From: Mustelus asterias
Lineage: Eukaryota
Direction: 5' to 3'
Length of the DNA stretch: 64,000 nt
NCBI RefSeq assembly: GCF_964213995.1
Contig: NW_027590162.1
Location: forward strand, 248,001-312,000
The notes under the pieces are model-generated. The model did no database searches. It had not been told where the DNA came from and saw only the letters and a list, made by a program, of their open reading frames with translations. Made by a program: the position numbers and the translations under genes. This document shows, one piece after another, positions 55,013-55,311 of this stretch. The stretch's first letter is position 1, and each line of letters starts with the position of its first letter.

Positions 55013-55051
55013 ATCGCTTCTCGGCCTTTTGGCTAAGATCAAGTGTAGTAT
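55013..55051 (+). pseudogene. RNU2: U2 snRNA 5' fragment (nt 1-38/39)
   Basis: ATCGCTTCTCGGCCTTTTGGCTAAGATCAAGTGTAGTAT is the exact vertebrate U2 5' end; the rest of U2 is absent. Confidence 0.95.
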
Positions 55052-55311
55052 GGATTGGATGCTGCACTTGGTTGAGGTCATGAGGTTACATTGAAGCTTC
55101 ATATGTTTCATATGAAGCAATTTTTAAAAGCGGCATCTCGGCCTTTTGGCTAAGATGCAAATGAGCTCAAGCCTTGGAGGAGGAACCTCCCCCAACTCCA
55201 TTCAGCTTGGCTCATGTAGATCGAGCCCAGGACAGGGTAATTTGGTCGGAAATGTCTCAACTTGTTGAGACTCTGAATTGAATTTGATTGAATTGGAAAA
55301 GTACAAAAAAA
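55013..55311 (+). mobile_element. U2-headed retroposed element (Keno/Utopia-like 3' end or snRNA-headed SINE)
   Basis: U2 head, ~260-nt hairpin-rich body with a second U2 21-mer, and an oligo-A end. Confidence 0.6.

Follow-up and report, generated by a model that had tools for sequence, protein, structure and literature searches.

The window (the whole stretch of 64,000 nucleotides analysed here) is a histone-gene region that also holds tRNA genes (31180, 34873 and 62164) and LINE debris. Its dispersed H2A, H2B, H3, H4 and H1 genes, with their stem-loops, lie at 580-2660, 10151-10687, 11842-12216, 29483-29869, 56479-56889, 61237-61548 and 62798-63478; H2A and H3 stand tail to tail within a duplicated 2.1-kb unit. 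Fairly intact copies of a LINE family other than the one discussed below, presumably of CR1/L2 type, occupy 16605-19220, 38651-42577 and 57941-60306, and fields of a minisatellite of about 40 bp extend over about 27.5-29.1 and 48.8-52 kb. The element under study lies on the forward strand at 55013-55310. Directly behind it, on the same strand, is a histone H2A gene (55311-55699), frameshifted near 55540 in the window copy, whose histone 3' stem-loop (55725-55769, forward strand) was located by RNA family search. An older, unrelated repeat fragment on the reverse strand (54902-55009), presumably an HE1/V-type SINE, ends at the element's 5' end. It had been noted earlier as an upstream SINE fragment, and it has 77-83% matches elsewhere in the window; unrearranged H2A paralogues lack it.

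All parts of the element are read on the forward strand. Its head (55013-55051) is identical to nt 1-39 of the genome's own U2 snRNA genes, stopping just past the branch-point recognition sequence, and divergence from those genes begins at nt 40; the Rfam U2 model scores the whole element at 51.9 bits, with good alignment over the head only. Downstream lies an antisense arm (55059-55087), predicted by folding to pair with U2 nt 11-39 over 26 bp, followed by hairpin 2 (55096-55118, 10 bp), which is 9 nt shorter in the old subfamilies described below, and by an A-T5-A4 linker (55119-55128) that the motif scan places as Sm-like, outside RAU4-6GR. Alignment, folding and conservation define an inner copy of U2 stem-loop I with extra closing pairs (55133-55158), of which 55133-55156 matches 55016-55039 at 23 of 24 positions. 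Folding then gives hairpin 4 (55161-55215), with a 3-nt bulge and a variable loop, and alignment identifies a remnant of hairpin 5 (55219-55247); 27 bp present in relatives are absent from the window copy only, with the break at 55245/55246. Hairpin 6 (55254-55271, by folding) has 7 bp and a 4-nt loop. The tail with its oligo(A) (55272-55310) has no target site duplication (TSD) and is joined to the H2A start codon, the oligo-A at 55305-55311 passing directly into the ATG at 55311. The earlier note had described an exact U2 head giving way to non-U2 sequence, hairpins at 55096-55118 and 55254-55271, a second copy of U2 stem-loop I and an oligo-A end, and each of these features was recovered.

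Scans used the Sm-site definition RAU4-6GR and the Pol III box motifs. In the one copy scanned there is no A or B box, no poly(A) signal and no canonical Sm site, and three T-runs occur; apart from U2, no ribozyme or other Rfam RNA was found above threshold in the element. It is not a U2 snRNA gene or variant, as U2 nt 40-191 and the Sm site are both missing. Nor is it a classical Pol III SINE: it has no internal Pol III promoter and no tRNA, 7SL or 5S head in Rfam, and the T-run in the A-T5-A4 linker argues against Pol III.

The window element is one copy of a dispersed family of poly(A) retroposons of about 325-330 bp. At least 5,356 occurrences of an 18-mer that bridges inner U2 copy and body were counted in the 3.68 Gb of genome searched (reversed control, 0), and a U2 head lies within 150 nt upstream of the inner motif in 28 of the first 30 matches ordered by position. 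Among the best 40 of 2,398 candidates scored with the element, nearly all are full length at 85-92% identity, and the last 91 nt match at 100% in all 40 scored places (best 40 of 803 candidates). A set of 104 copies, obtained from 157 matches by leaving out 19 with no recognisable head and merging duplicates, has a median identity of 95% to the column majority; copies taken by position have a median of 93% (range 83-97%), and family copies measure 284-358 bp. Copies begin at U2 nt 10 or earlier in 91 of the 104 and at nt 1-3 in 47. They carry A-tails, and TSDs of 7-30 nt flank 58 of the 98 copies not joined to H2A under a permissive rule applied without a shuffle control; a tandem neighbour was present in 11 of 30 position-ordered copies. 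Of the origins the earlier note had proposed, it is thus the U2-headed SINE that the copy number, heads, TSDs and A-tails uphold. Head and inner stem-loop I copy are found family-wide, and the inner copy, for which local duplication had been considered, is the best conserved region of the family (mean column identity 0.986).

A tree of 70 of the 104 copies separates old, shorter subfamilies from a young one with identical members, and the junction between head and body is fixed within each subfamily. A monomeric ancestor starting at the inner U2 copy was considered and rejected, with only five matches, from different subfamilies. In the old subfamilies hairpins 4 and 5 share a U2-like GATCAAG opening word and the same bulged 3' closing strand, which suggests an internal duplication. 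Some SINE copies are fused head to head with another SINE or with the LINE described below (L164:1078-1411, L245).

Copies of the family also lie inside U2 genes. The true U2 genes form arrays on contig C24 with 1,833- and 8,035-bp units, and a second U2 class, about 90% identical and differing in its 3' half, forms units of about 450 bp on C21, which the LINE invades heavily (L105, L131-L133, L202; G000:C21, 28.05-28.08 Mb). Six exact matches (control, 0) join the SINE tail through an A-run to U2 nt 38-51, for a chance expectation of about 0.0001 with about 100 target sites, and two further on-target junctions with small changes occur at C24 and C8. These eight copies of more than 5,000, on six contig loci, belong to several subfamilies and run into U2 nt 38 onward, which settles in the affirmative whether on-target copies continue into U2. 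According to the excerpts available of the literature cited here and below, the U2 flank at the junction is the published Keno 3' target (PMC6136364), and Utopia uses that U2 target site too (PMC4640811).

The upstream joins are seamless. One SINE copy sits in register in the 1,833-bp array of C24, and its upstream DNA is identical to that of the neighbouring U2 gene at 300 of 300 positions. The end unit there begins with U2 upstream DNA, U2 nt 1-39, a shortened SINE body, an A-run and U2 nt 38-55, and continues with a truncated LINE, an A-run, U2 nt 38-55, a second SINE, an A-run and U2 nt 38-191. The upstream DNA and head of the second class give 12 exact matches, six leading into the SINE, two into the LINE and four into intact U2. 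The C24 copy, which is internally deleted, is the only SINE found behind first-class U2 upstream DNA among the best 40 of 1,058 candidates. Canonical octamer and PSE motifs were not found in the U2 upstream DNA. On C1, C6 and C14, dispersed composites of U2 pieces, spacer and SINE are each bracketed by one TSD, which suggests that RNA made through occupied arrays was retroposed; a stepwise build-up of the C14 composite is possible. Several promoter-linked SINE copies are themselves retroposed pieces. The promoter-linked copies represent several subfamilies, with terminal branches of 0.008-0.076, none being identical to the youngest. No master of the youngest subfamily was found among the on-target and promoter-linked copies; masters could be hidden in collapsed arrays.

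Two smaller observations concern the same target site. Of the roughly 20 units in the 1,833-bp array, 9 have in place of U2 nt 38-49 a single or double repeat of a 19-nt piece whose end falls at the Keno site, nt 37 (L092-L095; G000:C24, 43.017-43.059 Mb), possibly insertion footprints spread by array homogenisation. At L102 (G000:C12:25755105) a SINE with a duplication of U2 nt 38-53 interrupts a very short retroposed fragment of U2 (about nt 33-58), itself flanked by a TSD; if the fragment was hit in place, about 25 nt are enough as a target.

The U2 arrays also harbour a LINE of about 5.3 kb, broken in all copies examined. Its ORF1 encodes ZCCHC3-like RNA-binding domains with CCHC knuckles and its ORF2 an APE endonuclease, a reverse transcriptase (RT) and a zf-RVT domain; the RT shares 43% identity with a protein named Tx1 149 kDa. 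The label "Keno-type" used here denotes the U2 junction, the APE endonuclease and the likeness to the Tx1 protein, independently of any reference Keno sequence. The LINE makes the same joins as the SINE: 23 of its 3' ends lie just before U2 nt 38, 15 of these in units of a single array, and 44 of its 5' ends carry U2 nt 1-35. Outside the arrays, all 16 LINE starts examined have the U2 head, and 13 of 16 3' ends examined are off target, several with TSDs. SINEs stand directly behind LINE tails (L015, L052) and LINEs behind SINE tails (L239, L243). The link to U2 loci and a Keno element that had been suspected is therefore present, in on-target copies reaching U2 nt 38 and beyond and in an ORF-bearing LINE at the same site. 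Of the partner envisaged there, an autonomous element with the SINE's own 3' end, the shared junction was found and the shared 3' end was not, alignment against shuffles giving no clear 3' end common to the two. Utopia was rejected as the partner found, which has an APE endonuclease and no restriction-like endonuclease. Descent of the SINE body from the LINE 5' UTR was likewise rejected, local alignments being equalled in 146, 131, 197 and 23 of 300 shuffles.

Several LINE-bearing arrays deserve mention in their own right. In each of about 15 near-identical 8,035-bp units (L091 and neighbours; G000:C24, 44.81-44.94 Mb), an intact U2 gene is accompanied by a headless U2 and by a broken Keno-type LINE that another SINE interrupts; the units represent a dead LINE amplified through concerted evolution. 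A third, older U2-associated array (L098, L231; G000:C24, 41.74-41.76 Mb) holds a short, internally deleted Keno derivative consisting of U2 nt 1-35, a partial 5' UTR and the end of ORF2; we take the piece in front of it to resemble a U1 5' end.

Folding indicates a strongly structured RNA. The whole window element reaches a z-score of -7.12 (0 of 200 shuffles as good) and a young copy -8.45 (0 of 100). In the first predicted helix the arm just downstream is paired to the U2 head between about nt 9-11 and nt 39; this helix dissolves U2 stem-loop I, which recurs as the inner copy, and covers GUAGUA. In the 15-nt arm core, all four departures from the perfect complement are A>G or C>T on the sense strand, and G-U pairing is kept. 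A plain local alignment of the arm with the reverse complement of the head is not significant (25 of 300 shuffles as good) because such wobble changes score as mismatches, so that the pairing rests on folding. Subfamilies vary the top of the helix in length and sequence, some with new stems, and never lose it; changes in the head are accompanied by matching changes in the arm or loop. Together with the fixed junction, these matched changes indicate that the head belongs to the master RNA. The first 60 nt of the LINE fold likewise, using a different arm.

In 25 chosen copies, 97.6% of cells pair and the covariation score exceeds all 500 shuffles; few pairs covary on both sides (3 of 70, as good in 45 of 500 shuffles). 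Across 99 copies (the 104 with 5 duplicates dropped), pairing is kept by 19 of 21 variants shared by at least four copies vs 27 of 84 singletons (p = 2e-6, the shared variants not being independent), and by 18 of 19 vs 25 of 39 when transitions alone are counted (p = 0.012); this test is partly circular because the structure was derived from 25 related copies. The head is predicted to be masked instead of displayed. The antisense arm would bury the branch-point and U6-pairing sequences, which would prevent faulty U2 activity of the chimeric RNA, and the arm may exist to mask splicing-active sequence. An earlier head, kept for its structure, is the probable origin of the inner stem-loop I.

Taken together, the element is probably SINEU-like, with U2 promoters for its transcription and the Keno-type LINE for its mobilisation. 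Because the targets are shared, we infer, as was done for SINEU, that the LINE mobilises the SINE in trans. A SINE inside a U2 gene would be transcribed by Pol II from U2 +1, with the U2 upstream DNA as its putative promoter, and its RNA would therefore begin with U2 nt 1-39. The LINE proteins would reverse-transcribe this RNA from its A-tail, mostly off target, leaving promoter-less dead copies. At a U2 gene, the head cDNA would anneal to the upstream target strand and restore promoter, head and body, that is, a new master; annealing of co-transcribed target sequence has a precedent in R2 (PMC3774820), and it is by this route that masters may be rebuilt. A stronger version, in which confidence falls a little short of even, is that of a self-renewing SINE. 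The U2 head would serve as a homology arm by which the element lands seamlessly behind U2 promoters with the help of the LINE, the antisense arm would have been selected at the RNA level, as in the LINE, and the locked second stem-loop I would be a U2-mimicking handle for host or LINE proteins. If this holds, the family, non-crocodilian and still young, would be the first snRNA-headed SINE with its life cycle worked out.

Transcription of the same family might instead be independent of U2 promoters, with internal or chance flanking promoters driving it, U2 template switching topping up the 5' end and on-target copies being dead ends. This is unlikely, even with at least 5,356 copies against 8 on target, no on-target master for the youngest subfamily, and extra 5' U2 pieces on some copies (L018, L120), as in SINEU-2 (PMC4494074); the junction fixed per subfamily, head changes matched in arm or loop, and T-runs without Pol III boxes speak against it, and the flanks examined showed no evident non-U2 5' extension common to several copies. 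Less probable still is that a different L1/Tx1 family made most copies and the Keno-type LINE takes the RNA only occasionally. The lack of a clear common tail and the nearly exclusive off-target position of the SINE would fit such a division, but the Keno-type LINE itself is mostly off target, produces comparable TSDs and forms alternating tandems with the SINE, and the on-target SINEs come from several subfamilies. It is very improbable that the element started out as, or turned into, a small RNA of the host, either a U2 variant or an antisense regulator, and that the dispersed copies are its processed pseudogenes. The structure is strong and conserved, Rfam places the U2 Sm site on a U-rich stretch that separates hairpins, and the element occurs in several organisms: at least half of the body's words appear in public runs under seven organism codes, one of which possibly denotes the source species, and the body is covered in three of four public runs examined. 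Against this stand the departure from the Sm consensus, the lack of any Rfam family except U2, and loops that change from one subfamily to the next; nor was a conserved array of genes for the element found. Just as improbable is the other origin put forward in the earlier note, a Keno or Utopia 3' end read through from a U2 promoter and retroposed: the target site is the same and the young tail is weakly like the LINE 3' UTR (4 of 300 shuffles; old tail, 135 of 300), but the body aligns to neither UTR of the LINE found, none of 30 tail matches examined (from the SINE-saturated best 40 of 803) has a LINE upstream, and the body shows six conserved hairpins and a series of subfamilies.

The reading as a SINE transcribed from U2 promoters and moved by the Keno-type LINE has its closest parallel in SINEU-1, -2 and -3 (Kojima 2015), which the available excerpts describe as crocodilian only, preferring Mariner-N4_AMi as target and leaving transcription an open question (PMC4494074). 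The comparison is by general description, independent of the sequences of the bodies. Shared traits are the U2-derived head, a non-coding length below 500 bp, the poly(A) tail and TSDs, internal T-runs with no Pol III promoter, repeated snRNA segments, tandem insertions, and a Tx1-type partner that is also snRNA-headed and is assigned from the shared target (PMC4494074); both are propagating families with fixed junctions and subfamilies and not sums of independent chimeras. Unlike SINEU, the present family has copies that follow U2 upstream DNA and occupy, within U2 genes, the Keno site; it also has a head predicted to pair with an antisense arm, and identical youngest copies. With Keno, a U2-specific LINE of the Tx1 clade, the family shares the U2 3' junction (PMC6136364, PMC4640811), and its partner has the APE endonuclease, RT and CCHC ORF1; the SINE, however, is non-coding and not a piece of the partner LINE, which differs from Keno in its relaxed specificity, its U2 head and its own antisense arm.

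R2 and its SIDEs offer a second parallel, being site-specific, co-transcribed with a host RNA gene and accompanied by non-autonomous riders at the same site, with target sequence retained at the RNA 5' end giving uniform 5' junctions (PMC3774820, PMC3414825). Unlike R2, no ribozyme was found in the SINE, and none would be needed if transcription starts at U2 +1; unlike R2 SIDEs, the SINE is not an internal deletion of its LINE and occupies thousands of off-target sites. 3'-truncated U2 retropseudogenes and snRNA/L1 template-switch chimeras likewise contain a U2 5' piece that stops near nt 35-40, is fused to other sequence and has TSDs (PMC4494074), but they are independent one-off events, whereas the present family propagates and one-off short forms number just five. 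No U2-headed SINE was encountered in the cartilaginous-fish literature searched, nor in passages of PMC5499810, PMC5381603 and PMC5786205, and Repbase or Dfam may already catalogue the family.

With this family, SINEU-type elements reach beyond crocodilians. Candidate master loci in U2 arrays, a matching LINE and very young copies make the transcription of snRNA-headed SINEs testable, and use of the U2 promoter would explain how such promoter-less elements are transcribed. The predicted masking of the head suggests selection to hide spliceosomal sequence in elements carrying it. Delivery of an RNA of about 330 bases by a Tx1 enzyme to one exact position in a multicopy gene would also be relevant to RNA-templated targeted insertion.

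The window copy would be a dead off-target insertion that took the place of an H2A promoter and was later duplicated with the histone cluster. The H2A gene at 55311 has lost its 5' UTR and CCAAT/TATA-like boxes with about 2.1 kb of upstream sequence, and unrearranged paralogues have 2.1-3.1 kb of extra upstream DNA with such boxes. An identical SINE-H2A junction occurs at 13 loci, one of which matches the window at 99.3% over 8.6 kb, which points to a single event amplified by segmental duplication; an allele with the older repeat and no SINE was absent from the 14 loci examined. Behind the SINE at the 13 loci, H2A is full length in five, slightly shortened in two and frameshifted in six, including that of the window, and some frameshifts may be assembly errors. 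These copies are most likely promoter-less pseudogenes, and expression of H2A driven by the SINE is thought unlikely because 6 of the 13 are frameshifted. Save for the removal of the H2A promoter, an allele present at 13 loci, the window copy is ordinary debris.
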